Part shown: positions 5,539 through 21,765 of the stretch, piece by piece
How positions within the stretch are numbered: the first letter of the stretch is position 1
How the letters are laid out: each line of letters starts with the position of its first letter
Assembly (NCBI GenBank): GCA_023484515.1
Contig: JAMDAY010000030.1
Coordinates: 1,320 to 65,319, forward strand
From: Patescibacteria group bacterium
GTDB lineage: Bacteria > Patescibacteriota > Doudnabacteria > UBA920
Reading direction: 5' to 3'
Length of the DNA: 64,000 bases
Translations under genes and position numbers: made by a program
Notes under the pieces: model-generated
Seen by the model: only the letters and a program-made list of their open reading frames with translations
Told to the model about the DNA's origin: nothing
Databases searched by the model: none

Positions 5539-5596
5539 TGGTTCTACGTCAAAATATAATACCTATTCCAGTTTTGCCATTTTTCATAGCAGAAAA

Positions 5597-6121: not shown

Positions 6122-6493
6122 ATGTTGTCTGATTTGTTAGTCTTTCAAAAAGTTTACGAGTTCGTGCTGTGGGTTAAGCCAACTGTCCAGCGGTTTGAAA
6201 GGGTACATAAATATAGTTTAGGTCAGCAATTGGAGAATGAAACTTTGCAGCTGCTCAAAGACGTGGCTAGGGCCAACTTAAAGCGCGATAAAGCCGCAAG
6301 TATAGAAGACTGCCTGGTGTGTTATGAATTGGTTAAAGTGCTGGTTCGATTAAGCAAAGATTTTAAATTATTGAGCATAAAACAATACGAATTTGCCGCA
6401 GTCAGGCTTGACGAAATAGGCAGGCTTTTAAACGGGTGGAAAAATAAATTCGGCAATATAAACAAGCCGCTTTCGCTCCAAAAGAATACTTAA
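6122..6493 (+). CDS. avd: DGR accessory variability determinant (Avd)-like four-helix-bundle protein
   Basis: A 123-aa ORF preceded by a GGAGG box 8 nt upstream of ATG 6122. It lies between the VR and TR, the usual Avd position. Its sequence (FQKVYEFVLWVKPTVQRFERVHKYSLGQQLENETLQLLKDVARAN) follows the same pattern as the four-helix-bundle/IVS-protein family member at 57764-58186 (FPKEEMFGLAIQIIRAAVSITSNIAEG). Confidence 0.65.
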   Translation: MLSDLLVFQKVYEFVLWVKPTVQRFERVHKYSLGQQLENETLQLLKDVARANLKRDKAASIEDCLVCYELVKVLVRLSKDFKLLSIKQYEFAAVRLDEIGRLLNGWKNKFGNINKPLSLQKNT

Positions 6494-6574
6494 ACAAATT
6501 ATAAGCCGAAAGTCCGTAATTACGTTTATGGATTTTTCGTTTATGGTTTTACGGATTTTAGGGACAAAGCGAAT

Positions 6575-6722
6575 AACGCCTTCAAACGCGGCGCCAATTG
6601 GAACAATGGGTCGAATGCCGGGGCCTTTGCCCTGAATCTGAACAATGGTCCGTCCAATACGAACAGCAACATTGGTTTTCGGTGCTCCCGTTGAGGCTGG
6701 TTGAGGCGGGTTCGCGAGGGGT
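6575..6722 (+). repeat. DGR template repeat (TR)
   Basis: This non-coding 148-bp copy of the VR is adenine/AAC-rich (aattggaacaatggg, ccaatacgaacagcaac). It differs from the VR only at A positions and shares the GC-rich IMH-like 3' end. It lies between Avd and the RT. Confidence 0.9.
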
Positions 6723-6979
6723 GGGTAACACCCTGGCCAAGAAATTGGCCTTGCTGGAATTTTTATCTCCTACGGGAATAAAAAGAGAGCACTATAAACC
6801 CCAGCTTTGCTCCTTCTTGAGTAAGCCTTTTTGGGCTGAAAGGGAAAATATGGGCCGTTACCCCAAAAGCGTAAGGATTATCTTTCGGGTTTGGGTAAAG
6901 TAAAATAGGTCCTTTCGTGGGATGGGTATTTTCTACGTCGTCTTTATGGGCCGGGAAGATACCCATCTTGCTATATTAT

Positions 6980-7996
6980 ATGTTCAACAAAGTTTGCAGT
7001 TTCGAAAATCTCTATCAGGCATACATAAGAGCCCGCAGATGCAAACGGCAGCGCGATTACGTTTTGGAATTTGACGCCCACGCCGAAGAGAACCTGCTGG
7101 CCTTAAAAAATGAATTAAAGGAAGGCAATTATTGCCACGGCGGATATAAGGAAATGGTTGTCTGTGATTCCAAAAAACGGCTTATTAAAGTCGCGCCTTT
7201 TAGGGACCGGATTGTCCACCACGCCTTGTGCGCGGCTATTGAGCCAATTTTTGACAAAGGCTTTATTTTTGATACGTATGCCTGCAGGAACGGCAAGGGT
7301 ACGCACAGCGCCGTAAAAAAGCTGCAGCAATTTTTGAGGCAGCCGGAAGCGCGGTATTGTTTGAAATGCGACATATCCAAATATTTTGCCAGCATTGACC
7401 ATGAAATATTATATCTTCTCATTTGTGAAAAAATAACTGACGAAAACACTTTAAAACTTATCAGGAAAATTATAGATTCCAGCTATGACCGCCTTGTTTA
7501 CGAGGATTTATTTACCGTCCGCAAGACCGGTATTCCGATTGGCAACCTGACTTCCCAATTGTTCGCCAATATTTATTTAAGCGAGTTAGATAATTTCGTC
7601 AAGCATAAACTTAGGGAAAAATTCTATTTGCGGTATATGGATGATTTTTTGGTGCTGGGAAATGAAAAATTACGGTTGGGGCGGATAAAATCCATAATTA
7701 GGCAATTCTTGAGCAGCCGGATGCGCCTTGTTTTGCATCCGAAAAAAGCTGAAATTTTTCCGGTGCGTGGCGGGGTGGATTTTTTGGGTTATAAAGTTTT
7801 TATTAATTACAGACTGCTGCGCAAGAGCACCGTGCGGAGGTTTTTGGCAAAATACCGGCGCGGCAGAAAGCTGGTGAGTTCGGGTAAGATGGAAGAAAAA
7901 ACTTTACGCGATTCGGTACGGTCCTGGCTGGCTTACGCCAAATTCGGCAACTCTTGGAAACTGCGCCAAGAGTTGCAGATTAAGTGGCTGAAATGA
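6980..7996 (+). CDS. DGR reverse transcriptase
   Basis: The RT motifs are present: KCDISKYFASIDH, the DGR-specific IGNLTSQLFANIYL (IGxxxSQ rather than group-II QGxxxSP) and YMDDFLVLG. The N-terminus (FENLYQAYIRARRCKRQ) is typical of DGR RTs. The ORF opens at 6917, but the likely start is M 6980. Confidence 0.9.
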   Translation: MFNKVCSFENLYQAYIRARRCKRQRDYVLEFDAHAEENLLALKNELKEGNYCHGGYKEMVVCDSKKRLIKVAPFRDRIVHHALCAAIEPIFDKGFIFDTYACRNGKGTHSAVKKLQQFLRQPEARYCLKCDISKYFASIDHEILYLLICEKITDENTLKLIRKIIDSSYDRLVYEDLFTVRKTGIPIGNLTSQLFANIYLSELDNFVKHKLREKFYLRYMDDFLVLGNEKLRLGRIKSIIRQFLSSRMRLVLHPKKAEIFPVRGGVDFLGYKVFINYRLLRKSTVRRFLAKYRRGRKLVSSGKMEEKTLRDSVRSWLAYAKFGNSWKLRQELQIKWLK

Positions 7997-8235: not shown

Positions 8236-8718
8236 ATGGAATACCAAATCAACATAAATTACCAGTTCACGGCCGAGAGCGAGGCTGAGGCCAACGACAA
8301 GGCCAAACAATACCTCAGCGATAACCTCACGGTTAAACCTTTGCCGGAGTCCATACTCAGCCCGCTGGAGGTAGCCGCAAAGTGCCAGGATTTCCGAAAG
8401 AAAAAGAAAGAACACTTCTGCGTCTTTTTCCTGGATACCCAAAACCACATTCTTGGCCGAGAAACGGTCAGCATTGGCACGCTGAATGCCAGCCTGGTCC
8501 ATCCCCGAGAATGTTTCCGGACGGCGATCGTAAAAACCGCGGCTTCGGTCATTTTCGTCCACAACCATCCCAGCGACAGCCTGGAGCCGTCTCCCGAAGA
8601 CCTCCAAGTTACCAGACGACTAAAAGACGCCGGAAAACTTCTGGGTATTGAGGTGTTAGACAACGTGATTGTCACGGCCGAAGCTTTTGTCAGCATGAAA
8701 GAGCGAAACCTCCTTTAG
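8236..8718 (+). CDS. radC: RadC-like JAB/MPN domain protein
   Basis: The sequence VIFVHNHPSDSLEPSPEDLQVTRRLKDAGKLLGIEVLDNVIV matches the RadC C-terminal JAMM-like domain. An AAAAAGGAG box lies 6 nt upstream of the ATG. Confidence 0.8.
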   Translation: MEYQININYQFTAESEAEANDKAKQYLSDNLTVKPLPESILSPLEVAAKCQDFRKKKKEHFCVFFLDTQNHILGRETVSIGTLNASLVHPRECFRTAIVKTAASVIFVHNHPSDSLEPSPEDLQVTRRLKDAGKLLGIEVLDNVIVTAEAFVSMKERNLL

Positions 8719-8807: not shown

Positions 8808-9353
8808 TTACTGCAAGAGTATTTCCGCAGTATTGACTTGGCTGTTGCAGTTGACGAGTAGGTGGATCGGTAGGTTTTTTTGGTTCAGCGCAACCAAGAC
8901 GTAATTGTAAGCGGCCACCGAATACGAATGTCCGGCAACAGTAATTGTTTGTGCTGCGTTGGAACGGTTATCCAGCATGATTGTGACAAGGTTAGCAATA
9001 GCCATTTGGCTCGGAATAGCCTGACAGCTTGAGTTGAATTGTATGCGGGAACTTGCGTACTTAACTACCGTGTCGCCATAACTGAGGGGCTTGGGCGGGG
9101 CAGGTTTTGGTTTGCGGAATGGAATAAACTTGCTAGCCGGAGTAGATGTATTAATCGTATCCGCAGTAGAGGTTGCGGCTTGGGTGGGCGCAGGGATCTG
9201 GTCTTGTACGGGAACGATTGCTGTGATTTTCACTATTGGGGTTTTTTGGGTAGCCAGACGCTTAGGCCTTTGCCTTTCGTAGGTTATTGAACTAATAATA
9301 ATCATAATGACAGCCACAGTCGCCCAAATTATTGCCTTCGTGTTTTTTGTCAT
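8808..9353 (-). CDS. hypothetical membrane-anchored protein (last gene of T4SS-like operon)
   Basis: An N-terminal TM helix (AIIWATVAVIMIIISSITY) is followed by a Pro/Thr-rich linker and a C-terminal domain. The gene is co-directional and contiguous with the upstream T4SS-like genes. Confidence 0.5.
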   Translation of the reverse strand: MTKNTKAIIWATVAVIMIIISSITYERQRPKRLATQKTPIVKITAIVPVQDQIPAPTQAATSTADTINTSTPASKFIPFRKPKPAPPKPLSYGDTVVKYASSRIQFNSSCQAIPSQMAIANLVTIMLDNRSNAAQTITVAGHSYSVAAYNYVLVALNQKNLPIHLLVNCNSQVNTAEILLQ

Positions 9354-9369
9354 AAGTTCAATAAAATAT

Positions 9370-10128
9370 TTACTTTTGCCAATCGCTTAAGCTGGTTTGG
9401 GTAAAAGCATAAGCCGGGTCTATGGGCTGGCTGCTTCGCCACAAGGCAAAGTGCAAGTGTTTGCCCGTAGCCCAGCCGGTGCTGCCTTGCAGGCCAATGA
9501 CTTGTCCTGCTGTGACTTTGTCGCCAACTGCCAGCGGCGGCTCGGTTGCCAAGTGGCAATATTGGCTTGAGAGTGAGTCCGCATGGACAATGATAACTTC
9601 ATAGCCGCAGCCATATTGCACGTCAGCGGCTTCTTTTACTTGGTACCAACAAATGCCGTAGTCGTTATCGTCACAAAATTTCCAGCGTCTTGTTGTGTTT
9701 TCTAAAATATTGCTGTTTACCGCTGCTACTGTTCCGTCGGCAAAAGCCCGGACTTCAGTTTGCCTGGGCTCGTAGTCAGCCATGTCCCAAGCAACATGCA
9801 ACCGCCCGACTTTTGCCGAGGAATCTAGAATTACGCCTTGCGTTAATGACCCCAAGGTCGGGAAAGCATACGGGTGCTTAAAGTCATACCAGGTCTCGCC
9901 GTAAATGGTTTTGTAACTAAAGCTTTGAAATTCGGCAAACTGCGCTAAATTGGGGTTTACCGTGCCGTCTGCAACTTTGCCGTTGCCCTGCAAGACCGCA
10001 ATAATAGTTGCCAAAACCAGATACAAGATAAAGGCGGCGCTCAAAGTTAATAGTGCCAGCCACAGCAAAAATCGCTTAATTCTATTCCTGTTGGCATAAA
10101 GGGTGTAGGCGGCCTGAGCTGGGTTCAT
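9370..10128 (-). CDS. M23/LytM family metallopeptidase (cell-wall hydrolase) with N-terminal TM anchor
   Basis: The C-terminus (GDKVTAGQVIGLQGSTGWATGKHLHFALW) matches the M23 peptidase signature. An N-terminal TM helix is present. Confidence 0.8.
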   Translation of the reverse strand: MNPAQAAYTLYANRNRIKRFLLWLALLTLSAAFILYLVLATIIAVLQGNGKVADGTVNPNLAQFAEFQSFSYKTIYGETWYDFKHPYAFPTLGSLTQGVILDSSAKVGRLHVAWDMADYEPRQTEVRAFADGTVAAVNSNILENTTRRWKFCDDNDYGICWYQVKEAADVQYGCGYEVIIVHADSLSSQYCHLATEPPLAVGDKVTAGQVIGLQGSTGWATGKHLHFALWRSSQPIDPAYAFTQTSLSDWQK

Positions 10129-10142
10129 AAGGCAATAGATAA

Positions 10143-12542
10143 TTAGCGCGGCGGCTTAGTGGTACAAATTAGGTCTTCCTCCTGGCTGCTTTTTATGGAG
10201 AGAGGTATCTTGGAATCATTGATAATGAGCAGGCCTTTGCCAATTTCCAAGCGTTCCAAATAAGCGCGCTCGGGTTTGTTAATATGAACTTTTTCGTTGA
10301 GCTTATCAAAAGAGTCACTGACTTTGTGCTTCATGATCAAGGTCAGGGAAGACTGGTCAAATAAGTCTGAGGTGCGCGCAAACCCGCTGTTGTAATAATG
10401 GTTAATGGATTGGACAATGGTCGTGACCCCCGAGTTGTATTTCCTGCCCCGCAACGCCAAGGAAGCCAGCTTTTCCACAATCAGGCTGGATTGGAACAGT
10501 TGGCTGGCTTCGTCCACAATCAAGCTTTTAAACCGGGCTTTGTTTTTGGGATGGTTAATGTAACTCCAATAACTTTCTAAAATCACGGCCACCACAAAGT
10601 CTCGCTTGTCCACGTACTTTAAGGCAAAAACAATTAAGTCATCGCTGGCAAAATCAATATTTTGCTGCTTGTTAAACAGGTAGTACTGTGGATGCCGCGG
10701 TTCGGTGTAAGACCTTAGGACCGTAAGCAAGTTTTCGATTGTTCGGTTTTTTACCAGCCGGTCAATCTCCCTGATAAAGTCCTTGAGTACCGGTTGGTGG
10801 TTATTTTGGAGGCACTGCTCATACACAGCACCGATAGCTTTTTCCAACTGCGTCATGTCAGTTACGCTGATTTTTTCGTTCTGGTAGAGTTTCTGGAAAA
10901 GCTGCCTGACAAACTCGATTTTTTGCGCCTTGTACTCCGGGCCTGGAATGTGGAAAGGGTTAATGTAATAAATGGATCGATCGGAAAGCTCTATGTATTT
11001 GCCTTTGAGATAACTGGTGACCATTTCAAATTCGTTCTCCACGTCCAGGACAAATGACTGGTAGCCGATCATGCGGCTGCGGATGAGGTCTAGCTTGATA
11101 AAATAGGATTTGCCCGCGCCGGTGGAAGCGATAATTGAGCGGTTGTAGCTTTCCAGCTCTTTAATGTCTATGGTAACCAAGGAGCGGTTGATTTCGTCTA
11201 CGCCGTAAAGGATGCCAGTATTAGAAGAAATTTGTGGGGTAATGAAGGGAAAAGTAAAAGCCGCGACTGAGGTGTCAATGTCCCTGTGGTTTTTGGTGTC
11301 AGTATTGCTTGCGCCCGCAATGAACGTGCCTTTAAGGCCTTCCAGCTGCTCGTAGTGGTAAATCCTGGACTGCATCATTTTGCGGCTTAAGACCCGCTCC
11401 ATGTTCATGTGCACCATGTTTAAGGCCTGTAAGGTACTGGAACGGAACGTAACCTCGATTTTTAAGTCAATGGGCTTGATCTCTGACTTTAAGTATTGCC
11501 TTTCAATCCGTTCCGTGCTTTCCAGCACCAAGTTGTCAGCGATGTTTTTTGGCTTGTGCGCTTGGGTCTCGTCAAAAATTTTGGATTCAATGCGGTGGCG
11601 CTTTTCGGTAATTTTCATCACGGTCTCTTTGGGGTCTTTGCTGGTAAAGGTAAACATAAGGTCTGAGGCGTAAGGGAACATGATGATTTCCTTAAACCAG
11701 TCAATATAGGCATAAGAACCGAGTTCACTAATGAATTCCGATCGCAGGAGGTTTTTGCCGTTAATACTTAACAAATCAATGTTTTCTTCTTCAATAAAAT
11801 CCGGGCTGATTTTGTTAATGATGGAAAACGGCAGGCCTTGCTCTAAAGCCTTTTTGCGAAAGTCCTCAATGTGCCCGTAAAACTGCCGGTTATGGAGGAA
11901 TTTCTCTTCATCCAGGTAAGCCATTATCACCCGGACAAGCTCTTCGGTTTCCATAATTTTGACTTTTAAATTTATAGCCTGGAGCTGCGACTTAAAAGTG
12001 GTGAGGATGGCAATCATGCTTTGCCTGGCTTCTTGGAATATTTCCTGTTCGGTAATCCGCCGCCTTTTTTTGCCATCCTTTTCTTCCCGGCTGACAATGT
12101 CTTTGGACAACGTGTATTTCAGCTCGCTGAATTCCAACAACAGGAAGAATTTTTTGGTGATAATCTCGTAGTCTTTGCTGATGTCCCGGATAAAGTCGGC
12201 GTATTTTTCAAACAGGTCATAGGTGCCCAGGCCGCGGATGCTGTAGGCGTGCTCCAGTTGGCCGATATAGTCATCGGCGTTGGTCTTGCGGGTTTGCACT
12301 AAGACCCGCAGCGGGTACTTTACGTCAATTTCCCTGAGGACCTGCTCAAAGCCTGTAATGGCTCGCTTCTTTTCCGCTTCATCCATGAGGCCAAAGTTGG
12401 CCGGAAAAACTTCCAGGCACATGCGGTATGAGCCGTTCTTCATAATTAGGCAGCCGCCCTTGATGTCCTTGAACTGCCAAAAATTAGCCAGGGTCTGGAA
12501 TTTAGGCTTGGTTTTGAAAAAGAGCTTATTGATAAATGACAT
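10143..12542 (-). CDS. virB4: VirB4/TrbE/CagE-family type IV secretion ATPase
   Basis: A 799-aa protein with Walker A (STGAGKSYFIKLDL) and Walker B-like (SLIVDEASQLF) motifs. Its N-terminal domain resembles the 58204-58917 ORF, and the protein is paralogous to the 59034-60878 ATPase. Confidence 0.8.
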   Translation of the reverse strand: MSFINKLFFKTKPKFQTLANFWQFKDIKGGCLIMKNGSYRMCLEVFPANFGLMDEAEKKRAITGFEQVLREIDVKYPLRVLVQTRKTNADDYIGQLEHAYSIRGLGTYDLFEKYADFIRDISKDYEIITKKFFLLLEFSELKYTLSKDIVSREEKDGKKRRRITEQEIFQEARQSMIAILTTFKSQLQAINLKVKIMETEELVRVIMAYLDEEKFLHNRQFYGHIEDFRKKALEQGLPFSIINKISPDFIEEENIDLLSINGKNLLRSEFISELGSYAYIDWFKEIIMFPYASDLMFTFTSKDPKETVMKITEKRHRIESKIFDETQAHKPKNIADNLVLESTERIERQYLKSEIKPIDLKIEVTFRSSTLQALNMVHMNMERVLSRKMMQSRIYHYEQLEGLKGTFIAGASNTDTKNHRDIDTSVAAFTFPFITPQISSNTGILYGVDEINRSLVTIDIKELESYNRSIIASTGAGKSYFIKLDLIRSRMIGYQSFVLDVENEFEMVTSYLKGKYIELSDRSIYYINPFHIPGPEYKAQKIEFVRQLFQKLYQNEKISVTDMTQLEKAIGAVYEQCLQNNHQPVLKDFIREIDRLVKNRTIENLLTVLRSYTEPRHPQYYLFNKQQNIDFASDDLIVFALKYVDKRDFVVAVILESYWSYINHPKNKARFKSLIVDEASQLFQSSLIVEKLASLALRGRKYNSGVTTIVQSINHYYNSGFARTSDLFDQSSLTLIMKHKVSDSFDKLNEKVHINKPERAYLERLEIGKGLLIINDSKIPLSIKSSQEEDLICTTKPPR

Positions 12543-12984
12543 GGGAGAGGTAGTTGCCTATGAAAGCCAAAAGGAGGAGGCCTAAGGCCAAGGCAATAAA
12601 AATAATAATAAAAGTTTTCATATGGTTTTCTTCCTGGTAAACGAGTTGTTTGGCTTTAAAGCTGGCCGTGCCGCTTGCGGCATGGTGGTGGTAGATTAAG
12701 GCTTTAGGCTGGTTTTTGTAGTAGAAGAAAATAAAGAGCAGGTGACGATAAAAATTTCTGCCATGAATTTCGGCAATGCCGCAAAGCGATAAAGTGGCTA
12801 AAGCAAACATGCCCAGGCCGGTTGGCAGTTGTTTGTCCACTAGGCTAAATACTCCAAGGCCGACAAACAGCGTGGCAATAAATACCAGCACAATTTGTCT
12901 AAGGCCCAATCCCCAAAACAAGGTAACTTTGTAGCCTTCGATGGATTCAGGGATGTCGATTTTAAATGATTTATCTTCGGGCAT
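12526..12984 (-). CDS. small membrane protein, VirB3/PrgI-like candidate
   Basis: A 152-aa protein with two hydrophobic helices. It sits immediately upstream of VirB4 and overlaps it, the typical VirB3 position. Confidence 0.45.
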   Translation of the reverse strand: MPEDKSFKIDIPESIEGYKVTLFWGLGLRQIVLVFIATLFVGLGVFSLVDKQLPTGLGMFALATLSLCGIAEIHGRNFYRHLLFIFFYYKNQPKALIYHHHAASGTASFKAKQLVYQEENHMKTFIIIFIALALGLLLLAFIGNYLSHVIYQ

Positions 12985-13001
12985 AGGGGTTTTGGTTTAG
13001 G

Positions 13002-14312
13002 TTAGCTTTTTAATCTCTTTAACCGGTAATAGAGTCCGGCTCCGGACTGCGCGCCTTTCCTGATGACCGAACGGAAGCCTGCCACTTCAGAGGCATTGGC
13101 AATCTGCTGCAGCAAGTTGTTGCTATCCGCGACAATGGCCATACCAACAAGCATCAAGATTAAATTACCCAAAGAGAAGCCGCCGGAGCTTAAAAACACA
13201 AAAACTATGAGCAGGATCAGCAGGTCAAACATCAGTCCAAAGCTGGTCACAAAAAACTTGTGCCAGAAAATCATAGCCATATTCTTGGTCTCGTTAAAAA
13301 ACAACATGGGCGTGAAAATGGGAGACAAAAGGATCATGATCAGCAGCAGGAAATACCGTTTGGCGTTCCTAAACACCACAAAGCCAAACAGGACAACATA
13401 AACCAGCACAAAGATTGTCAGGCCAATTAAGGCCAGGCCAAAGCTGCCGGAAGAATTCCAGAGGCCGTCGGCAATCAAGGCTTTTAAGGCAATGGTTAAA
13501 CCATTGGCTAGCTGGGTATTAAATAAAAAGGTGGCAAAGGCTTGGGCGGTTAGGATTAAGGCTTCGGCCAAGTACCTGGCCAAAAACACCCCGGCAAACC
13601 CCAGCAATATCTTACCCACGTCTCCCACAAAATCGCTGGAGAAGTCCTGGTCCAAGGAAAAAATTATGGCTTTGAAATAGTGGGTCACCACCAGCAAGTA
13701 GACCCAGGCCAAACCGATAATCTCACTGAGCTTAAGCAGGCTGTTAAAATTGGCAATCTGCTGCAGTTTGCCTGGGGACAGGTTCGGGTCGCTATTAAAC
13801 AGTTCAGCTGGCAGGCTGAATAAAAAATTAAAATTAAATTTTTCCACGACTTTTCCCACCACGGTTCCCAGTCCCCGGACTACTTTTTCAATGATAATGC
13901 CTAAGACGTCATTGATAGTCTTTTTGACGCAGTCAATGGTGTCAACCACAATTAAAATACACTTGGGGTCGGTGATGTTGCTTTGGATGTCACTAATTTC
14001 ACTGCCGAGCAGATTGGTGTTATTAATGTCATTCGTGGAGGGCAGTTTGCCCGTAATGTCCTCTTTAACTCCGGCGTAGAAATTGCTCATGTAGGCTTCG
14101 TGAAAGGCAAAGACAAAGGCTCCGGAAAGGAACAACATAATAAAGCCCACAATTACGGTTTGGACGACCAGGTTGGAGCGAACGACGTCATCGTGCTTGC
14201 CAGTGTTTCTTAAGGCTCCGGCAATGGCAATGACAAAAACACCAACCACCATGCTGATGGCGATTATGGCTGGGACATAATGCGCTAAAACAGCTTTAAT
14301 CAGGTTGTCCAT
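13002..14312 (-). CDS. polytopic membrane protein, VirB6/TrbL-like candidate
   Basis: A 436-aa protein with about 8 predicted TM helices. It lies in a T4SS-like operon between the VirB8-like and VirB3-like genes. Confidence 0.5.
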   Translation of the reverse strand: MDNLIKAVLAHYVPAIIAISMVVGVFVIAIAGALRNTGKHDDVVRSNLVVQTVIVGFIMLFLSGAFVFAFHEAYMSNFYAGVKEDITGKLPSTNDINNTNLLGSEISDIQSNITDPKCILIVVDTIDCVKKTINDVLGIIIEKVVRGLGTVVGKVVEKFNFNFLFSLPAELFNSDPNLSPGKLQQIANFNSLLKLSEIIGLAWVYLLVVTHYFKAIIFSLDQDFSSDFVGDVGKILLGFAGVFLARYLAEALILTAQAFATFLFNTQLANGLTIALKALIADGLWNSSGSFGLALIGLTIFVLVYVVLFGFVVFRNAKRYFLLLIMILLSPIFTPMLFFNETKNMAMIFWHKFFVTSFGLMFDLLILLIVFVFLSSGGFSLGNLILMLVGMAIVADSNNLLQQIANASEVAGFRSVIRKGAQSGAGLYYRLKRLKS

Positions 14313-15240
14313 AATTTATTTGGGAGAGGTTGTTAATTTGTTTACAGCCTTCGTAGCCATATTTAAAATATATTTTTGGAGATTTGGCAAAACCTACGCT
14401 GATCCGGCTAAGCGTGAGCTGGCTGTCCACGCCGTTTTTTTCCAGGATTTCGTTGTCAGCCAAAAATATCCGGTTAGATTGCGAGTCCCGGAGCACCAGA
14501 AAAGAAAACAAGCCTGCGGGCTGGGTCTGGGCATTTCGGGATTTGAGTAAGTCCTTGTCTTCCAGGTTCGGGTCGCGGACGTCCAATATTTTATCCCCGA
14601 TTTGCGCTTTCCAATCCGGGCTCGTTTTTATGAATTCAGCCAGTTTAGCCATGGAAGAATAACGCCAGTCATAAAGCTCAATGCCGGTGGCTTTTTCAGT
14701 CTTGTCATCAAGGTCGCAGACCAAGCCGCCAAGTTTTACCAGAGTTGGCTGGTCGCTTAAGAAGCCCTTATCCTTGGCGTACTGGTAGCGGGCACGGGCG
14801 TGATTTTCCAAATAATTGAAGCTTTCCGGCACGACTGTAGACAAGTCACCGCCGGTTAAAGGCGTCAGGCCGCTGTTAATGAACAGAAGATCTTCGAACT
14901 TCCTGCGGACCAACTCCTGGTTCTTTCCTTCCAGCCACTGCTGCAGTTCGCCCGTAAAAGATTCTACAGTTTGGGTCTGGATTTTTTCCTTGTACGCCTG
15001 GCTTTGCCAATAGGTCTCGTCGGCAATTACCGTTTCCCGGGTCGGAGAAGGTTTTGGGTTGCTTACTTTGGGTTGGGGGGAAATGCGCCAGATTTGCAGG
15101 TAGATTGCCACTGCAAACAACAGGCTAATGTACAAAACCGCCCGCAGGTTAAAGTTGGGAACAAAAGTTTTTACCAAACCATCCAGCCTGTAAAGCCAGC
15201 TATTTCTTTTGGGTTGTTTGGTTTCTTGCTCATCGCTCAT
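14296..15240 (-). CDS. bitopic membrane protein, VirB8-like position (hypothetical)
   Basis: A single N-terminal TM helix (LRAVLYISLLFAVAIYLQIW) is followed by a roughly 250-aa periplasmic/extracellular domain. The assignment rests on operon position only. Confidence 0.4.
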   Translation of the reverse strand: MSDEQETKQPKRNSWLYRLDGLVKTFVPNFNLRAVLYISLLFAVAIYLQIWRISPQPKVSNPKPSPTRETVIADETYWQSQAYKEKIQTQTVESFTGELQQWLEGKNQELVRRKFEDLLFINSGLTPLTGGDLSTVVPESFNYLENHARARYQYAKDKGFLSDQPTLVKLGGLVCDLDDKTEKATGIELYDWRYSSMAKLAEFIKTSPDWKAQIGDKILDVRDPNLEDKDLLKSRNAQTQPAGLFSFLVLRDSQSNRIFLADNEILEKNGVDSQLTLSRISVGFAKSPKIYFKYGYEGCKQINNLSQINYGQPD

Positions 15241-15270
15241 AGGCTAATGTGGTTAATAATTATCTTGGCT

Positions 15271-15642
15271 TTAAGCATTAGACTTTATGCCAACCAGGCC
15301 TAAGACATACAGGATGAGGCCAATGATAAAGATGGCAGCAAAAGTTATGCCCACGCCCACGACCGTGGATCTCAGTCCGGCCTTGGCTTCTTGGGACTTG
15401 ATGGGATCAGAGCCTGAAGACTGCAGCTTAATGCCGTACCAGGCAACCATGATGACCGCGTAGAGGACGGCAATGCCGAAGATGACCCCGATACCGATAT
15501 TGGCAAAATCCCGAACCGGTTTCATTTTATCTGACTCCCAGACTGACATGTCTGGTTTGGGCAGTTCCTGGGCAAGCGCGATTGAGGCGGTTAAAAATAG
15601 GGCGGAGACACTGGCCCCAAGTGAAGCAATAAATTTTTTCAT
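15271..15642 (-). CDS. T4SS pilin-like protein (VirB2/TrbC-like): signal peptide plus two hydrophobic segments
   Basis: A 123-aa protein with a signal peptide (MKKFIASLGASVSALFLTASIALAQE) and two TM segments (IGIGVIFGIAVLYAVIMVAWY and VVGVGITFAAIFIIGLILYVLGLVGI). It lies in the T4SS-like operon. Confidence 0.55.
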   Translation of the reverse strand: MKKFIASLGASVSALFLTASIALAQELPKPDMSVWESDKMKPVRDFANIGIGVIFGIAVLYAVIMVAWYGIKLQSSGSDPIKSQEAKAGLRSTVVGVGITFAAIFIIGLILYVLGLVGIKSNA

Positions 15643-15727
15643 TGTTGTTACGTTAGTGTATTAATAATTGAGATACCCTAAAGATATATTCGCTCTCAGC
15701 TATCATTGGAATAGATGTAATTGTTCA

Positions 15728-16615
15728 TCATAAAAAATTAAATAACTTAATTCTTTGGGTAATTTCAGCTTTGAGCAGCCCGTCTTTACTTAACCTAACT
15801 GTGCTTTCTGTTGCATAAATTGGTTCTAAAAATTGCTTGGCTCCGGCAATTAAGTCCAAGTGGGTAGTGACAATGTTGAGTTTTAGAAGGCCAGGGCGGT
15901 TCATAAAAATATTGAGCCAAAAGGAGCGCTCCATCCCTTGGGTTTGGAACACTAACCGCAGAGTGTATTGTTCAGAGTTTTGCAAAGCAAGAAAGTCCCA
16001 GTACCTTTGGACCTTATTAAGCAAGGATTCGTTGGATTTTCGGGTGCGCTCAAATTCCGTGTAAACTTTGTACTCCGCCTGGCTGGTCTTGTAAACTACG
16101 GTGTAATCGGGGGTTAAGGCTTCCACACGTTTGTCGCTTATATAGTCTTGTGTTTGCGAACTGTCTTCGCCTTTAAAGCTAAAACTTAAATTTGCAGACT
16201 TGTTCAAGCTTTCCAAACTGGCCAGCTCCACGATTTGGGCTTCATGCTTGAACAATCCCCAGGACAGCAAAGTCTTGGCTGTCGGGTAATTTTTCAGGCG
16301 CTGCCACTCATACTGGCCACACTCAGTCAAGACTTTTAGTCCTTGTTTGGAAAGCATATAAAACAGCGAGAAGCCGCCGCCGGAAAAAACCTTAAAGCTT
16401 TCCAAAAGTTTAGCCTGCCACATTCGGCGGAGTTTGGTATACATGTACCGGCTCCGCTCTTTTTGGCTGAGGAACCTGGTAATATGGCAGCTGGAGGCCA
16501 GCCTAAACTCCAAGACTAAAGCCAAAATCTCCAACGCGGACTGGTTTATTTCCACGTTATACGGGCTTACGTTAGCCCTGGGGGTGAGTTTTACGTCAAG
16601 GGTGTTTAAATACAT
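15728..16615 (-). CDS. hypothetical protein (possible winged-helix / relaxation-accessory protein)
   Basis: A 295-aa soluble protein lying between the coupling-ATPase and pilin genes. No decisive motif was seen. Confidence 0.45.
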   Translation of the reverse strand: MYLNTLDVKLTPRANVSPYNVEINQSALEILALVLEFRLASSCHITRFLSQKERSRYMYTKLRRMWQAKLLESFKVFSGGGFSLFYMLSKQGLKVLTECGQYEWQRLKNYPTAKTLLSWGLFKHEAQIVELASLESLNKSANLSFSFKGEDSSQTQDYISDKRVEALTPDYTVVYKTSQAEYKVYTEFERTRKSNESLLNKVQRYWDFLALQNSEQYTLRLVFQTQGMERSFWLNIFMNRPGLLKLNIVTTHLDLIAGAKQFLEPIYATESTVRLSKDGLLKAEITQRIKLFNFL

Positions 16616-16632
16616 ATTTTAGTTTTGCTAAA

Positions 16633-19320
16633 TTAAAAATTTACTGCAGCCGGTGCCCGTTCTTTGTCTGGCTCAAAGGTAGTGTGCCTGCCCATGAGCT
16701 CCCGGAAAATTTGCTCCCTTTTAGCCGAGTAATAAATGCCGTTGATATTGTCCCGTTTTTGTTTTATGACTTCCAAAGGCGTGCCATAGCTTTCCATGGT
16801 TTCTTTAATGAAATATTCTTCCGTGTCCCTTAAAATGTCTTTGGGATGGGGAGTTTTTTGGATATTGATGGACATGGCGTCTTGCGGCACGCCTTGGACT
16901 AAAGTTTTGAGGTAAGCCGTGCCGGTCGGCAGGTTAATAATGTCTTCCACGGTAATCCTGCCGCCTAATATCTTTTCGGCGATTTCACTGTCTCCGACTG
17001 ACTGGGTGCGCATGAAGATTTTGGTGGCAATGTTGGACTCAATGGATTTTTGGATGCGCTCGTCCAGTTGGCCCATGAATTGGTTGGAAATGACCAAAGC
17101 GGTGTTAAACGCCCGAACTTCGGAAAACAGGGTTTCAAAGATGTCGCTGGCCACCCTTTGGAACTCGTCAATAACGAACACACACGGTTTGCGGTCTTCG
17201 CTATTCAGCCTGGCTTGGCCGAAAATTGCTTCGGCAATATGGGCGGAGAGGTATACCGAGTAGTACTTTTTCAGCTGCTCGCTGGATGAGCCAAAGTTGG
17301 CAATAAAGATCTTGCCTTGCTTGATCATGTCTTCAAACGTAATCTTGGTTTCCAGACGGTCGGCAATGTTCATGAATTCCTGGTAATCCAAAAATTTGCC
17401 GATCTTGTTGTTGGTCGTGGCCAAGTACCTGGCAAGGTCGTTATTGGAACGCTTTAAGATTGAATCCGTCCAAAAGCTTTGCAACCTTAAGGGCAGGTAC
17501 TTTAAGAGGTTCTTTATTTGGTTGGGTTCGTGCAATAGCTGGTCCAGACCCGAGAGGGACTGGGCAGGCAGCACGTAAGCCGTGGTAAACAGCTGCCTTA
17601 AGATGTTTTCCAGTTCCGGGCCCCAGGAGTTAGCTGAATCAATCTGCACGAACCGCTTCATAATGGAGATTAAAAAGCCTAAACGCTCTTCGTCGCTTTT
17701 GTCCCCGGAAAACTGTGAAAAGAAGGGAAAGCTTAAAGGCTTGTCTTGCTGTTTGGAGGGATTAAAGTAAACTACATCCGCTTTCCGTTCTTCGGGGATC
17801 ATGGTTAAAAGGTCTGTGGCAAAGTCGTTTTTGGGGTCAATAACCAGGCAGGCGGCTTTGTCCTTGCCTGTTTTTTGCAGGACGTGGCTTAGGATGGTTT
17901 TTAAAGTTTCGGATTTGCCGCTGCCAGTGCCGCCAAGAATATAGACATGCTTTTTCATGTCGTCCCAGGTCGGGATGCCAATTTTGGTGTCTTCCTGCAT
18001 GCGGAAGTTAGACTTGCCCAGCTCCACGTAGAAGCTGTCGTCGTATTCGCGCATTTGCTGGCTGGCGGGTTTCTTTTTGAACTTAACAGTCTTAACCGAA
18101 GACACGGTTTGGTCATTGGTATCAGGCAGGTGCCAGAGGGAAAATAGCTCAATGTCAGAAATCACTTGCCCGAAATTCTGGTAGCCTGAAAAAGGCCATA
18201 ACCATAATTTTCGGGTTCTTAAAACCGGCTTGGTGTCTATAATTTGCCGCAGTTGCCCCGAGGTTGCCAAATCCTCCACCTGCCTGGTAAACAGTCTTTT
18301 ATGCTTGAGCATGTTCATGTTCTTTTGGTTGACCTCTGTCAGCACCCCCTGGATGTTGGCCAGTTTTATTTCCGCGTCTTCCGGGGTTTCGGAAACCGCC
18401 CAGTAAGAAATAATGGTTTGAAACAGGGAGGCTTTCATTTTTTCTTCCATGGCAATCTTCAGCGAACTGGCCAAGTCCGAAACAGGCTCCTTTTTGTAGG
18501 AAGGGGTTTGTTTGGCCGCTTGGGCCACTTCTTGCTGCGCCCGTTCCTGGTCTTCAATCAAGTAGTGGATGATTTGGTTGAAGTAATGGGAAGAAGGGGA
18601 GATGAGGATGTTGTAGGCCATAAACCGGCCCTTGGCCAGCGCTTCCATGGTGGAGATAACGGAATCCACGGGGTCGGAGGACACGTCCTTGAAGGTTTTT
18701 ACCCGGTGGTAAAACTTGCCCTCAATGGTGGTTTGGCCGTAACTCAAATAACTTTTTTGATACTTGGCCACCTCTGCCAAAACCGCGTCTTTGTCTAGCA
18801 TGGTGATTTCGGCATTGGGATAGGCATTAAAAATAGCCTTTTCCATCCGTTGGAAAAAGGCTATGGGGATTTGGAGGCGAAAGGATATGTAAGGGTATTG
18901 GGCCCAGACCTGCATCGTGAAAAATACTTGTTTGGCCAGGGCAACTTTCCAATGGCGGTAGAGCTTCTGGAAGAAGTAAAAATACCTGGAAAATTGGTGC
19001 GGCCCTTCAATCGGATCTTGGTAGACCGAATGGAAGGCCTTGAGGATTTTTTGCTGGATCTGGAAGGCTGTGGTTTGGGAGTCTTTGGGAATGGTAATTT
19101 CAAAATACAGCGTTTTGGGGAATTCTTTGTCTAAATCCTTGTTTTTTATTTTAATTTTTTCAAAAGCGTGGAAAATATCAAGGCGGTAAAGGGAGAAAAG
19201 CTGGTAGAGGGAAAATAGAAAAATGGTGCCACAAAGGGTCAATATTCCAGTCGTCCATTCCCAAGTGGGGATTTTCCTGACTGTCTCTAACCACAGCTGG
19301 TAGCCAATGTTATTAGGCAT
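16633..19320 (-). CDS. virD4: type IV coupling protein-like ATPase (VirD4/TraG/TraD family)
   Basis: An 895-aa protein with an N-terminal TM region, Walker A (YILGGTGSGKSETL) and Walker B (PCVFVIDEFQRVASD) motifs. It is the first gene of the minus-strand T4SS-like operon. Confidence 0.65.
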   Translation of the reverse strand: MPNNIGYQLWLETVRKIPTWEWTTGILTLCGTIFLFSLYQLFSLYRLDIFHAFEKIKIKNKDLDKEFPKTLYFEITIPKDSQTTAFQIQQKILKAFHSVYQDPIEGPHQFSRYFYFFQKLYRHWKVALAKQVFFTMQVWAQYPYISFRLQIPIAFFQRMEKAIFNAYPNAEITMLDKDAVLAEVAKYQKSYLSYGQTTIEGKFYHRVKTFKDVSSDPVDSVISTMEALAKGRFMAYNILISPSSHYFNQIIHYLIEDQERAQQEVAQAAKQTPSYKKEPVSDLASSLKIAMEEKMKASLFQTIISYWAVSETPEDAEIKLANIQGVLTEVNQKNMNMLKHKRLFTRQVEDLATSGQLRQIIDTKPVLRTRKLWLWPFSGYQNFGQVISDIELFSLWHLPDTNDQTVSSVKTVKFKKKPASQQMREYDDSFYVELGKSNFRMQEDTKIGIPTWDDMKKHVYILGGTGSGKSETLKTILSHVLQKTGKDKAACLVIDPKNDFATDLLTMIPEERKADVVYFNPSKQQDKPLSFPFFSQFSGDKSDEERLGFLISIMKRFVQIDSANSWGPELENILRQLFTTAYVLPAQSLSGLDQLLHEPNQIKNLLKYLPLRLQSFWTDSILKRSNNDLARYLATTNNKIGKFLDYQEFMNIADRLETKITFEDMIKQGKIFIANFGSSSEQLKKYYSVYLSAHIAEAIFGQARLNSEDRKPCVFVIDEFQRVASDIFETLFSEVRAFNTALVISNQFMGQLDERIQKSIESNIATKIFMRTQSVGDSEIAEKILGGRITVEDIINLPTGTAYLKTLVQGVPQDAMSINIQKTPHPKDILRDTEEYFIKETMESYGTPLEVIKQKRDNINGIYYSAKREQIFRELMGRHTTFEPDKERAPAAVNF

Positions 19321-19823
19321 AGTAAGCAGAAGTTAAATATTCATGCGTACAGTTACTAGCCCTCCCCGGCGTATTTCTGTCCCGCCGCTTCGCGGCGGGC
19401 AACTCTTCCCCCCATCTTTCCTCTCCAGTCTTTGGGTTTGTTTTTAGGTTTTGGTTTTAGTTAGATATTGGAATTTAGGTATTTGGAATTAAGACAAGAT
19501 AATAGGTTAAGGTAAGAATAGATAGTATTGATGTTTAGTAGAGTTAGTATAGATACTAGTCGTTCAGTTGATTCTCTGGTGAGATAGTAGCCACTGGTAA
19601 GGGATTATTAGAACATCAATAGACACAGGTGATTTAGAAGATTTGCTAGTACAATGGGGTTGCACTATTGGTTGTACTAGCCAGCCGCTGGTTCCATAGC
19701 TCCAGCTTAATAGAAAAATCCCTGATTAGCAAGGGGTAGTTTGCCAGCTTGTCAAGAAGACAAGGCTAGCAGGCCAAGGTCAGGGGTTTTGCATAAAGTA
19801 GGTTTTAGCAGCGTTCAGGATTT

Positions 19824-19950
19824 TCCACCAAGGGAAACTTTCAGGATTTTTAGAATTTTTTTTGGTCGCTTCGCTCCCATTGCAAACGGGGGGAAATGCA
19901 GTTTGAGCCAATATTTCTGCGTGCAAATCCCACGGCGGAAGAAAACGCAA
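19824..19950. repeat. left copy of a perfect 127-bp inverted repeat flanking the recombinase/Ubl cassette
   Basis: By base-by-base comparison, 19824-19950 equals the reverse complement of 24074-24200 over 127/127 positions. Confidence 0.95.
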
Positions 19951-20051: not shown

Positions 20052-20387
20052 TTAATTTACCCAAACGATCTTATTATCTCTAATCCAAAAGTGACTACCA
20101 CAAGTTCCATATCCTCTCCATAAGGACGGCATTAGCGTTACTCCTTTATTGCTTCTTGTTAGTCTCCAAACTGGATAAATGCTTTTCATCAAATTTACTT
20201 CAATTTTATCGCCACAGCCACACGGACAGGAAAATACTAACCACTTTAAGTGACCCTCATTGACTACTATATAAAAATAGGAACCAAGTCTATCTGGTAG
20301 TTCGTTCAACGATTTAATTTCCCTTGCCTGACCTAACTCACTCTTGCGTTGCCACTTTTTTACTAACTCTTTAAGCCAATTAAACAT
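20052..20387 (-). CDS. small Cys-rich protein (CPCGCG ... CGSHF; possible Zn ribbon), last gene of Ubl-E2-E1 operon
   Basis: A 111-aa protein that overlaps the JAB-E1 gene by 8 bp, indicating translational coupling. Four clustered cysteines are present. Confidence 0.5.
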   Translation of the reverse strand: MFNWLKELVKKWQRKSELGQAREIKSLNELPDRLGSYFYIVVNEGHLKWLVFSCPCGCGDKIEVNLMKSIYPVWRLTRSNKGVTLMPSLWRGYGTCGSHFWIRDNKIVWVN

Positions 20388-21762
20388 TTTGGCTCCAAAC
20401 GGTATCCAGGAAAGGGGTAGTGTCGCCCCTGCCCCAGTTATTTTTATTAGCGCAAAAACAATCGGCCTGTGGCTTTTGCGTGGTTGTTATAACTTTAGCT
20501 CTATCAAAAAAGTAAAGATATTCATTAGTCTCCCTTGCTCCCATAAAGCCGGTAAGTCTTTGTATCATTTCCGACACGGCCGCCGCGGCTACTGAAGAAG
20601 TGAAAGTAATTACAGCCGGTGCAGGCTCAGCTAATTCCGGCGCGTAACCCTCTTGTCTCCTAACAGCTGCTTCTGTCGGGTTTGTCGCTTGAAGTGATTC
20701 CGCTAACATACTTTGCGAGTTAAGTCTCTCACGACAAAGTAAACAAGCGTTTGAGGGGAAAAGGGTTGTTACTCTTCCTAAAATAGACTTTATGTTACCA
20801 TCTTGGGAATCAATTAATACCGCCATATCAATTACCGGAATGTAATAGTAGATAGAGAGTGTATTTAGCAAAGAACGTCCCCACTCATCATCTGTGCAAG
20901 CAAAAACCAAATCACAATTTCTTAATTCTTTAATTGCGACTTGGTTAGTAATGTTAGTTTCGCAAGTAATTACCTTGGTTCCAAGACCCTTGCTATGAGC
21001 TGACCGTTCCGCAATTTTAGTCTTATGGTGCCCTTCGTCCGATAAGAGAGAACCATAAACTCTATTTACGTTTGATTTTTCAAAAGCTTGCCCGTCAAAT
21101 AGTCTTAAGTCGCCAACACCCAACCTCATTAACTGCTCTGCAACTGCGGAACCCGTCCCACCAAGACCCACGATGCCAATCCTTAATTTTTGTAATAACT
21201 TTTGAATATCCTTGCCAAAAGCCCTGATTTGTCGGTCAAAAGAAATCTCGTCTAGGAGTTGCCCCTCGTTGTTATAAAAGAATTTAAACCTATTTCCAAT
21301 AACTCTAATAACTTCCATTGGGTAGCTTTGTCCATCTGCGAGCCAAACTCTACCAATTGGTTTTGTTGGAGAGGAAAAAACTAGGCTGCCGTGTAAATTA
21401 GAACGAGTAATTCTATTATAAGTAGTGCGGAATAATTTCTGCTCTTCCTTGTCATCTTGAGTAGAAAAATTAGGGGTAGTTTCTGGGTGCGAATGGACAA
21501 AAACAAAACTACGCTTTGTATTGTTAGCCTTTTTCAAAGCCCGCATAAACGAAGTTGACGGGATTGACAGACTGGTCGCCGAAGCACTTTCCAGTTCATT
21601 CGGCATTACTGGAATAACCTCTTGCACCAGTAACCTTGAATCCTCACTACCACTAGAAGGTCTGCATAAAAGATAAGCAGCCCGCTCCGTGGATGCATCT
21701 TTAAAGAGATGCTCAATGAGCTGACTGTATTCTGGTTCTAAAAAGGTTAAAGAATAACGCAT
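20380..21762 (-). CDS. JAB/JAMM deubiquitinase-like domain fused to ThiF/MoeB-type E1-like adenylyltransferase
   Basis: The N-terminus (FVFVHSHPETTPNFSTQD) matches the JAMM signature HxHx7Sx2D exactly. The middle (RIGIVGLGGTGSAVAEQLMRLGVGDLRLFDGQAFEKSNVNRV) is a ThiF Rossmann/GxGxxG fold. The C-terminus has CLLCR and CFCAN CxxC pairs, as in the E1 zinc motif. Confidence 0.8.
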   Translation of the reverse strand: MRYSLTFLEPEYSQLIEHLFKDASTERAAYLLCRPSSGSEDSRLLVQEVIPVMPNELESASATSLSIPSTSFMRALKKANNTKRSFVFVHSHPETTPNFSTQDDKEEQKLFRTTYNRITRSNLHGSLVFSSPTKPIGRVWLADGQSYPMEVIRVIGNRFKFFYNNEGQLLDEISFDRQIRAFGKDIQKLLQKLRIGIVGLGGTGSAVAEQLMRLGVGDLRLFDGQAFEKSNVNRVYGSLLSDEGHHKTKIAERSAHSKGLGTKVITCETNITNQVAIKELRNCDLVFACTDDEWGRSLLNTLSIYYYIPVIDMAVLIDSQDGNIKSILGRVTTLFPSNACLLCRERLNSQSMLAESLQATNPTEAAVRRQEGYAPELAEPAPAVITFTSSVAAAAVSEMIQRLTGFMGARETNEYLYFFDRAKVITTTQKPQADCFCANKNNWGRGDTTPFLDTVWSQNV

Positions 21763-21765
21763 TGT

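Follow-up and report, generated by a model that had tools for sequence, protein, structure and literature searches.

What does a compact nine-gene operon resembling a type IV secretion system (T4SS) do in an ultra-small bacterium of the Patescibacteria, or candidate phyla radiation (CPR): does it move DNA between cells by conjugation, or has it been repurposed for host contact or DNA uptake? The operon occupies positions 8808-19320 of a 64,000-nt stretch, here called the window, of contig JAMDAY010000030.1 from a genome labelled Doudnabacteria (GCA_023484515.1). We consider it probable that the nine-gene operon serves as the DNA-transfer module of an integrative conjugative element (ICE) in a CPR genome, rather than being a T4SS adapted to contact with a host or to DNA uptake. 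Within that reading, the locus belongs to the rare conjugation-competent minority of CPR.

The list of open reading frames (ORFs) gave nine ORFs in this interval, all co-directional on the minus strand (Table 1). An earlier note on this DNA had counted ten genes but itself named only nine. Its description of tight packing was accurate, with gaps of 17, 85, 30, 17, 14, and 16 nt and two 17-nt overlaps, one of them between the 152-aa PrgI/VirB3-like gene and the virB4 start. A genome scan found 25 related loci (numbered with an L below) in metagenome-assembled genomes (MAGs) labelled Doudnabacteria, Magasanikbacteria, Yanofskybacteria, and others; these are the deposited labels, and some third-party annotation (TPA) labels look unreliable. 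The VirB4 proteins of the 25 loci were 78-92% identical to that of the window, and the order coupling protein, relaxase candidate, (extra gene), pilin candidate, 314-aa protein, 436-aa protein, PrgI, VirB4, and M23 peptidase was kept wherever the contig was long enough. The nine ORFs are real genes and not chance frames, because homologues of all nine keep the same order in other genomes. All nine are intact, two independent short-read assemblies carry identical copies of the operon, and comparison with L019 and L022 showed every gene to be under strong purifying selection (nonsynonymous differences, pN, 0.05-0.29 vs synonymous differences, pS, 0.62-0.88). A scan for sigma-70 promoters and terminators was uninformative, with counts close to the shuffle expectation.

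By its sequence families and its predicted fold, the 895-aa protein that heads the operon is a VirD4-type coupling protein. The GGTGSGKS and FVIDEFQ motifs behind the earlier TraG/VirD4-like label are present, and the protein passed the Pfam cut-offs for TrwB_AAD_bind (1.5e-11, 44.3 bits, cut-off 20.5) and TraG-D_C (24.4 bits, cut-off 22). Some members of its family also matched PF02534 (T4SS-DNA_transf). The protein has one N-terminal transmembrane (TM) helix and an unusually long N-terminal region of ~400 aa. We think it very improbable that this ATPase is a second VirB4/HerA/FtsK-like translocase and the neighbouring 295-aa protein a transcription regulator, with dsDNA or protein being moved without a relaxase. 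The strongest Pfam match was to DUF87/HerA (3.6e-14), and FtsK_SpoIIIE was borderline (24.2 bits vs cut-off 24), yet the coupling-protein families passed their cut-offs and the operon has a separate bona fide VirB4. Structural comparison spoke on both sides. The best Foldseek E-values were to full-length TrwK/VirB4, and HerA also scored well, whereas the AlphaFold2 (AF2) model (pLDDT 80.8) had its best superposition on the soluble domain of TrwB (TM-score 0.64-0.69, TrwB-normalised); no FtsK chain was among the top 50 Foldseek matches. The E-values to full-length TrwK/VirB4 suggest that, in the model, the long N-terminal region resembles a VirB4 N-domain. CD1115 ranked third among the NCBIfam matches (1.6e-7), and the coupling protein had no informative match among PDB sequences.

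The 295-aa protein is a candidate MOBC-type relaxase, with nicking predicted from its sequence. The earlier note listed it as a soluble protein and reported no relaxase, a statement that has to be revised. The protein passed the Pfam cut-off for Replic_Relax, PF13814 (2.9e-9, 37.7 bits, cut-off 25.3, model positions 1-180/191), and keeps a D...ExE...K core. CONJscan recognises PF13814 as the MOBC relaxase superfamily (PMC5357655). The family was originally labelled a predicted transcriptional regulator, the label on which the regulator half of the translocase alternative draws, and has been placed in the PD-(D/E)XK superfamily (PMC3424549). The MOBC prototype, TraX of pAD1, has a winged helix-turn-helix (wHTH) plus a PD-(D/E)XK-type active site (PMC12857230). 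In the window protein, a weak PadR wHTH match covered residues 18-105. Among 16 homologues, H124, D170 (TPDY), E187, E189, and K193 (TEFERTxK) were invariant and E125 was conserved in at least 90%, such that the acidic residues and the lysine of a PD-(D/E)XK-type site are conserved and activity is predicted; this invariant nuclease core argues against a transcription regulator. The segment PDY...TEFERTRK parallels ADF...SFEIELTMK, at the same spacing, in the replication-relaxation protein of the MOBC-typed, pAD1-like plasmid pTEF1. Searching the PDB sequences with the relaxase profile returned nothing useful.

Of the parts expected of an MPF-FATA-like conjugative T4SS, the operon encodes a relaxase candidate (PF13814), a VirD4-type coupling protein, VirB4, and PrgI beside VirB4. 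Profile searches found no VirB9, VirB10, or VirB11 among the operon proteins, and the earlier description of a minimal monoderm T4SS/conjugation-like operon is borne out, with VirB4, coupling protein, PrgI, pilin-like protein, and M23 peptidase identified. VirB4 matched NCBIfam conju_CD1110 (5.1e-61, 206.9 vs cut-off 325), the TraC-F-type family (6.8e-38), and Mbov_0397 (3.4e-37), all below the equivalog cut-offs, as well as Pfam P-loop_TraG (PF19044, 4.7e-16) and the VirB4 structure 4ag5 in the PDB (3.9e-8). Its nearest plasmid relatives were on Firmicutes conjugative plasmids (20-24% identity), and in a search of 5.8 billion proteins the next-best VirB4s outside the element family were ordinary CPR proteins at 24-27% identity. 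The 152-aa protein was placed in the PrgI/VirB3 family (PF12666, 1.6e-6, 29 bits, cut-off 27), as had been proposed, and has three hydrophobic segments in place of the two TM helices claimed for it.

The 123-aa pilin candidate has the architecture first described for it. In a hydropathy scan, a cleavable-looking signal peptide ending in ALAQ was followed by two hydrophobic helices. It matched the Mbov_0395 pilin-like family of NCBIfam (1.4e-7, 31.1 bits) and Pfam T4SS_pilin (4.8e-5, 23.8 bits), below the respective cut-offs of 40 and 26.6; its homologues weakly matched TrbC or T4SS_pilin, and it was 63-90% identical across 17 loci. The M23 peptidase (Pfam Peptidase_M23, 1.1e-18), also correctly named before, takes the functional slot of VirB1, and its gene was always directly downstream of virB4 in related loci. 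The scan placed one N-terminal TM segment in each of the 252-, 181-, and 314-aa proteins, in keeping with the membrane-anchored and bitopic labels given earlier to the latter two. The 181-aa protein had no Pfam or NCBIfam match and was confined to the closest relatives (38-60% identity in L003, L019, L022, and L027), and a 183-aa gene holds the same position in L036. The 436-aa protein was 65-75% identical across 16 loci, and it is polytopic as claimed, with ~7 TM segments and not eight. The 314-, 436-, and 181-aa membrane proteins are all specific to this element family.

Upstream of the coupling-protein gene, a GC-rich hairpin and a short-repeat tract form a candidate origin of transfer (oriT). 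Their layout recalls the oriT of pAD1, where TraX binds five direct repeats at a distance of 70-120 bp from the nic site (PMC12857230). An equivalent hairpin stood 19-65 nt upstream of the coupling-protein start codon in 16/20 elements, L031 included; its stems fell into four sequence classes with pairing kept, and in the per-locus search 0/200 shuffles reached the observed score in each case. The hairpin is not a terminator, because it lacks a T-run. The G-poor short-repeat tract lies upstream of it, and beyond the tract are a conserved ACTGAACGAC box (19559-19568, plus strand) and a 10-nt inverted repeat (19645-19654 / 19672-19681). G-poor repeats in 19400-19560 of the window include AATTCCAAATACCTA / AATTCCAATATCTA and AACCAAAACC. 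Nearly all related short-read assemblies break 40-270 nt upstream of the coupling-protein start, inside this tract (the starts of L001, L003, L005, L008, L010, L013-L017, L019, L020, L022, and L024). These breaks may reflect population heterogeneity or a sequencing/assembly problem.

An ICE is expected to have an integrase linked to its transfer genes and to occupy different locations among genomes. In the window, L030, L018, and L031, a recombinase gene lies upstream of the coupling-protein gene. The earlier note had correctly placed the operon between RadC and an inverted-repeat cassette, and that cassette holds a large serine recombinase, the presumed integrase, framed by 127-nt arms that are 100% complementary. 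In L011/L030 and L018, the gene immediately upstream of the coupling-protein gene encodes a homologue (~40% identity), and in L031 it encodes a recombinase with the same three domains; in the window, L030, and L018 the recombinase and its inverted arms accompany the operon. In the four diverged elements (window, L030, L018, and L031), the paired arms are 120-239 nt long and 97-100% identical to each other. In the window, the outer 7 nt of the right arm coincide with the 3' end of the tmRNA gene, and on its far side from the island are the housekeeping genes SmpB, ArgRS, IleRS, and RecO. In L030, on a 927-kb CPR contig, perfect arms flank the recombinase and the outer arm end is the 3' end of tRNA-Tyr, with TIM, GlyRS, and RRF as neighbours. 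The module is therefore found at different tRNA-type sites, tmRNA in the window and tRNA-Tyr in L030. Flanking genes differ accordingly among genomes (tmRNA/SmpB in the window, tRNA-Tyr/TIM/GlyRS in L030, RNase Y/HU in L032), and one 927-kb contig holds two diverged operon copies.

The recombinase ORF runs through the right arm into the tmRNA antisense strand (24074-24391) or, in L030, into the tRNA-Tyr antisense strand (7503-7588). The RNA gene's CCACCA terminus forms the outer end of the arm, and TGGTGG encodes Trp-Trp in the recombinase tail; the arms of L030 hold several degenerate copies resembling a tRNA 3' half (GGTTCGAAcc...CCACCAC). Because one arm contains the 3' coding end of the recombinase, a flip of the segment would keep the ORF to the arm end and reverse its direction towards the transfer operon. 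In all four assemblies the segment was in the same orientation. Further out, AT-rich AAATTTCAAAT-type repeats at 27170-27306 and 29880-29917 form inverted copies (38 nt, 89% complementary, 2.6 kb apart) on either side of a PLD-SmpB-ArgRS block.

Relatives of the element vary in completeness and in the modules they combine, as is usual for mobile elements. Relaxase and coupling-protein genes head the operon and are kept in nearly all loci. L031 (PLYC01000013.1, same MAG as L003) has the recombinase, the coupling protein, and a gene in the relaxase position, without channel genes, and looks like a mobilisable relative. Its genes encode a serine recombinase, a helix-turn-helix protein, a 284-aa protein, a coupling protein (67% identical), and a 293-aa protein in the relaxase position, and ParB, a tyrosine integrase, RadC copies, and a NERD protein lie nearby. 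On the Doudnabacteria contigs of L036 and L038, a RepSA/G2P-like rolling-circle Rep and a 525-aa co-directional resolvase precede the coupling-protein gene, with no long inverted arms. The gene in the relaxase position of L036 is shortened (231 aa, no Pfam match), and those of L037 (275 aa) and L038 (295 aa) are full-length. L021 holds an operon copy (857-3904) without recombinase and relaxase ~720 nt from tRNA-Lys (64-138), and may be a decayed element. The cargo after the operon varies among loci, from diversity-generating retroelements (DGRs; ~8 loci) to restriction/methylase genes, heavy-metal pumps, and toxin-antitoxin-like genes.

Several observations weigh against the ICE reading. Some concern the parts. 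MOBC relaxases are poorly understood, with no covalent DNA intermediate known (PMC12857230). No match to the relaxase candidate came from a tblastn search of 72,556 plasmids, and hhalign of its profile with the pTEF1 protein aligned the wHTH region only (E 0.31); given how weak the direct pairwise homology with the plasmid protein is, the MOBC assignment rests on the Pfam model and the motif. The 436-aa protein had no Pfam match and no consistent family across members (TrbL/VirB6 in 1/17, at E=0.21), and its likeness to VirB6, proposed earlier, is unproven and comes from topology and position. The 314-aa protein had no Pfam or NCBIfam match even at E<5 across 18 members. Its AF2 model is confident (pLDDT 84.8, pTM 0.73), and Foldseek found no PDB match for it at E<=0.001, with VirB8, TcpC, TraM, and PrgL chains absent among the 50 matches listed. 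A VirB8-like (NTF2-fold) identity is thus unsupported, and another protein could fill that role; all 116 database homologues of the 314-aa protein fall within the same element family. Other observations concern mobility. Within 1-30000, neither the tmRNA end nor the DNA flanking the arms recurs as a direct repeat. A metagenome scan with the tmRNA 3' motif gave 31 loci that have no downstream DNA or genes in common with the window and offer no matching empty site; the best relative in that scan, L047, keeps ArgRS-SmpB-PLD-tmRNA and has no match beyond it. Neither an excised circle, an empty site, nor a second junction came to light, and the island lacks a defined far end. The Magasanikbacteria loci L032 and L035 have no recombinase nearby and a fixed chromosomal context. 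VirB4 clusters roughly by host label, virB4 GC tracks locus GC (0.35-0.51), and the GC of the window operon equals that of its host. Synonymous sites are saturated even between the window and its two closest relatives, which, with the GC tracking, gives no hint that transfer occurred recently between the genomes sampled.

On the same two grounds, we rejected recent inter-class transfer as the source of the 78-92% VirB4 identity. Since pS is saturated while pN is low, the element family is old and strongly constrained. These features also fit a stranded or domesticated former conjugative element that no longer excises or transfers and is kept for a benefit to its host, for example cell-cell adhesion or export of a DGR-diversified protein. 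The shared GC, the saturated sites, the clustering by host label, and the missing second junction and empty site all point that way, and the recombinase frame into the tmRNA antisense strand could be a fusion artefact of integration. We nevertheless regard this alternative as unlikely. The near-identity of the inverted arms in four elements argues for ongoing recombination, different tRNA-type sites are occupied, and one genome has two copies. An immobile element would have no reason to conserve a relaxase, and the neighbouring DGR bears an adenine-specific activity signature.

Similarly unlikely, in our judgement, is a minimal T4SS repurposed for host-cell contact, effector delivery, or DNA uptake, towards which the earlier note had leaned with its suggestion of DNA uptake or episymbiont contact. 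Most CPR T4SSs are without relaxases, and they are essential for epibiotic growth in Saccharibacteria (PMC12102498, PMC12857230). A VirB2-like pilin, otherwise not found in Gram-positive T4SSs, is reported in CPR T4SSs (PMC12857230). The window, however, holds a canonical CPR-type T4SS at a separate locus (Table 1), so the operon is an additional system and not the standard one of the organism. No coupling protein or relaxase was recognisable among the scanned ORFs neighbouring this second locus, the arrangement known from the chromosomal Patescibacteria-clade T4SS (PMC12102498), and the two VirB4s (799 and 614 aa) are only 25% identical. The operon departs from the chromosomal Patescibacteria-clade pattern, in which VirB4 has ~600-630 aa and usually no adjacent coupling protein or relaxase. 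The fixed site and lack of an adjacent recombinase in the Magasanikbacteria copies, and the absence of a relaxase from L021, would suit contact or uptake; set against them are the position of the relaxase and coupling-protein genes at the head of the operon, their retention in nearly all loci under purifying selection, the integrase linkage at tmRNA/tRNA 3' ends, and the variable cargo. The top NCBIfam match of the coupling protein was CedD, an archaeal DNA-import ATPase, but at 47 bits vs a cut-off of 600 and in the P-loop region only. This was the sole match to archaeal Ced-type DNA import (CedA/CedB/CedD), to which the operon does not belong.

If the operon is the transfer module of an ICE, the parts suggest a course of events. 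The recombinase would excise the island, and the MOBC-type relaxase would bind and nick the origin of transfer, possibly at the hairpin/short-repeat tract that precedes the coupling-protein gene. The coupling ATPase would then pass the DNA to a membrane channel of VirB4, PrgI, and the polytopic 436-aa and bitopic 314-aa proteins. The M23 peptidase would locally open the wall, and contact with the recipient would be made by the pilin, perhaps together with the DGR-diversified fibre encoded nearby; once in the recipient, the island would be integrated by the recombinase at a tRNA-like 3' end.

Table 1 Features of the transfer operon, its integration site, and its neighbours (window positions unless a locus is named).
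Feature	Position	Strand	Basis or remark
Type IV coupling protein, VirD4/TrwB-type ATPase, 895 aa	16633-19320	-	Pfam and AF2 fold
Candidate MOBC-type relaxase, 295 aa	15728-16615	-	PF13814
VirB2-like pilin candidate, 123 aa	15271-15642	-	Topology and sub-cut-off family matches
Bitopic family-specific protein, 314 aa	14296-15240	-	Hydropathy scan; position usual for VirB8-like scaffold
Polytopic membrane protein, 436 aa, ~7 TM	13002-14312	-	VirB6-like by position and topology only
PrgI/VirB3-like small membrane protein, 152 aa	12526-12984	-	Pfam PrgI
VirB4 ATPase, 799 aa, fused TraC-like N-terminal domain	10143-12542	-	NCBIfam, Pfam, PDB
Membrane-anchored M23 peptidoglycan peptidase, 252 aa	9370-10128	-	Pfam Peptidase_M23
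Membrane-anchored protein, 181 aa, last operon gene	8808-9353	-	TM scan
GC-rich hairpin CCCGCCGC-gaa-GCGGCGGG	19381-19399	-	60 nt upstream of coupling-protein start; oriT/regulatory candidate
Inverted-repeat left arm, 127 nt	19824-19950		Starts TCCACCA; 100% complementary to right arm
Large serine recombinase, presumed integrase	22664-24391	+	Pfam Resolvase 3.3e-21, Recombinase 1.3e-12, Zn_ribbon_recom 4e-8
Inverted-repeat right arm, 127 nt	24074-24200		Outer 7 nt = TCCACCA end of tmRNA gene
tmRNA gene	24194-24585	-	ARAGORN; Rfam RF00023, 119.9 bits; 3' end = island junction
Inverted arms in L030, 239 nt	L030: 7584-7822 / 9319-9557		
Inverted arms in L031, 148 nt	L031: 6720-6867 / 9422-9569		
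Inverted arms in L018, at least 120 nt	L018: 1-120 / 1872-1991		
RadC-like JAB protein	8236-8718	+	Pfam RadC 1.6e-41; convergent with operon
Bub-type ubiquitin-like conjugation operon, cargo	20052-22417	-	Between repeat arms, with recombinase
Diversity-generating retroelement beside operon	1099-7996	+	Pfam bAvd 6.2e-21, RVT_1 2.1e-24
DGR variable region	5261-5407		
DGR bAvd	6104-6493		
DGR template repeat	6576-6722		
DGR reverse transcriptase	6917-7996		
Canonical CPR-type T4SS locus	57304-63882	+	
PrgI of second T4SS	57304-57762	+	
VirB4 of second T4SS, 614 aa	59034-60878	+	PF19044 6.5e-25
929-aa SLT-domain protein and 237-aa unknown protein	within 57304-63882	+	

RadC adjoins the operon also in L003, L019, L022, L011, and L036/L037. 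The Bub-type operon gave a weak Multi_ubiq match (0.0056) and matches to Prok-E2_E (7.5e-33), Prok-JAB with ThiF, and DUF6527/BubE (1.3e-22) in Pfam. It is complete, with an 85-aa multiubiquitin-like protein, an E2 of family E, a JAB+E1/ThiF fusion, and DUF6527/BubE, and its GC content (0.41) is below that of its surroundings (0.46). The template and variable repeats of the DGR are 147 nt long and 89% identical, and 16/16 mismatches fall at template adenines with none elsewhere, an adenine-specific signature from which the DGR looks active. The protein it targets (1426 aa) is TM-anchored and repeat-bearing, and has a lectin-like variable tip at the C-terminus. Reverse transcriptase or bAvd genes lie downstream of the same operon in ~8 related loci, and a link between the DGR and mating is a speculation. 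Near the second T4SS, large unannotatable ORFs (49089-57153) and a nucleotidyltransferase/HEPN pair of the MNT-HEPN toxin-antitoxin type (48318-49035, plus strand) lie upstream, and within the region are a 23S-rRNA-IVP/bAvd-like gene (57764-58186) and, at 55123-55545, a PDDEXK_3 gene.

A large share of bacterial diversity belongs to the CPR, whose members are difficult both to cultivate and to modify genetically. According to a recent survey, most of their T4SSs have been repurposed, with no more than a small minority capable of conjugation (PMC12102498). Relaxases adjoined virB4 in just 15 cases there, coupling proteins were near virB4 in 148/5,713, and 58 MOBC relaxases were listed among 3,035 genomes, the elements not being described (PMC12102498). 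Searching the supplement of that 2025 survey by contig accession gave no match, and a search of the literature at hand gave no paper joining CPR with ICE, relaxase, and serine recombinase. We tentatively raise the possibility that the loci form an undescribed, old family of self-transmissible, CPR-native elements. Such a family would combine a monoderm channel with a pilin, a MOBC relaxase, and a long VirB4-like coupling-protein N-terminus with serine-recombinase integration at tRNA/tmRNA CCA ends, with long inverted arms (a possible flip switch coupling recombinase and transfer-gene expression), and frequently with a DGR surface fibre as a possible variable mating adhesin. If this is ordinary conjugation, the biology is not new, and the host and the combination of parts are. 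An intact module with relaxase candidate, coupling protein, integrase, and tRNA-type target makes conjugation in CPR directly testable, and an ordinary CPR T4SS beside it in one genome allows side-by-side comparison. The oriT candidate, the relaxase, and a serine integrase with a tRNA/tmRNA target are also possible genetic-tool parts for CPR.

Among known systems, the chromosomal Patescibacteria-clade T4SS (PMC12102498), which is essential in Southlakia epibionticum, shares with the operon its host phylum, VirB3, VirB4, a polytopic protein, a peptidase, and a VirB2-like pilin. It differs in usually having no nearby coupling protein or relaxase and is thought to be repurposed (PMC12102498). The VirB4 of the operon has a fused TraC-like N-domain, and its nearest non-family relatives are at 24-27% identity. 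Streptococcal integrative mobilisable elements (IMEs) of class 8 (PMC5357655) have a similarly compact set of serine integrase, VirD4 coupling protein, and PF13814 relaxase; a set of this kind, without channel genes, is all that L031 has. The window element, in contrast, has a full channel operon, a CPR host, and a recombinase framed by long inverted repeats at a tRNA-type 3' end. Having a full channel of its own would make it a self-transmissible ICE and not only mobilisable.

On the ICE reading, the operon would function as a monoderm, MPF-FATA-type conjugation system with a MOBC relaxase, like that of pAD1-type plasmids. The pheromone plasmids of Enterococcus of the pAD1/pTEF1 type are alike in having a Replic_Relax/MOBC gene beside a TraG/VirD4-type gene, VirB4, a cell-wall hydrolase, and no outer-membrane parts. 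Their relaxases and the window candidate have in common the D...ExE...K motif and a wHTH-like N-terminus, and the distant short direct repeats of the pAD1 oriT would have an analogue in the short-repeat tract that adjoins the window hairpin. Unlike these plasmids, the window element is integrated by a serine recombinase. Its VirB4 is 20-24% identical to plasmid relatives, its relaxase has no BLAST match, and no oriT gap separates its coupling-protein gene from the relaxase gene that comes next. A VirB2-like pilin stands where the plasmids have the LPXTG aggregation substance, and M23 where they have CHAP.

The best NCBIfam matches of VirB4 (CD1110, Mbov_0397) and of the pilin-like protein (Mbov_0395) point to Mycoplasma ICEs and Clostridioides CTn2-type elements, which carry out monoderm or wall-less conjugation. 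Scores well below the equivalog cut-offs make the window system a distant relative of these families and not a member. Mycoplasma ICEs use a DDE transposase and are not known to have a recognised relaxase. From known monoderm MOBC systems as a whole, the window element differs in its unusually long coupling-protein N-terminus, its unrecognisable VirB6/VirB8 slots, and an M23 peptidase that replaces the VirB1/CHAP enzyme.

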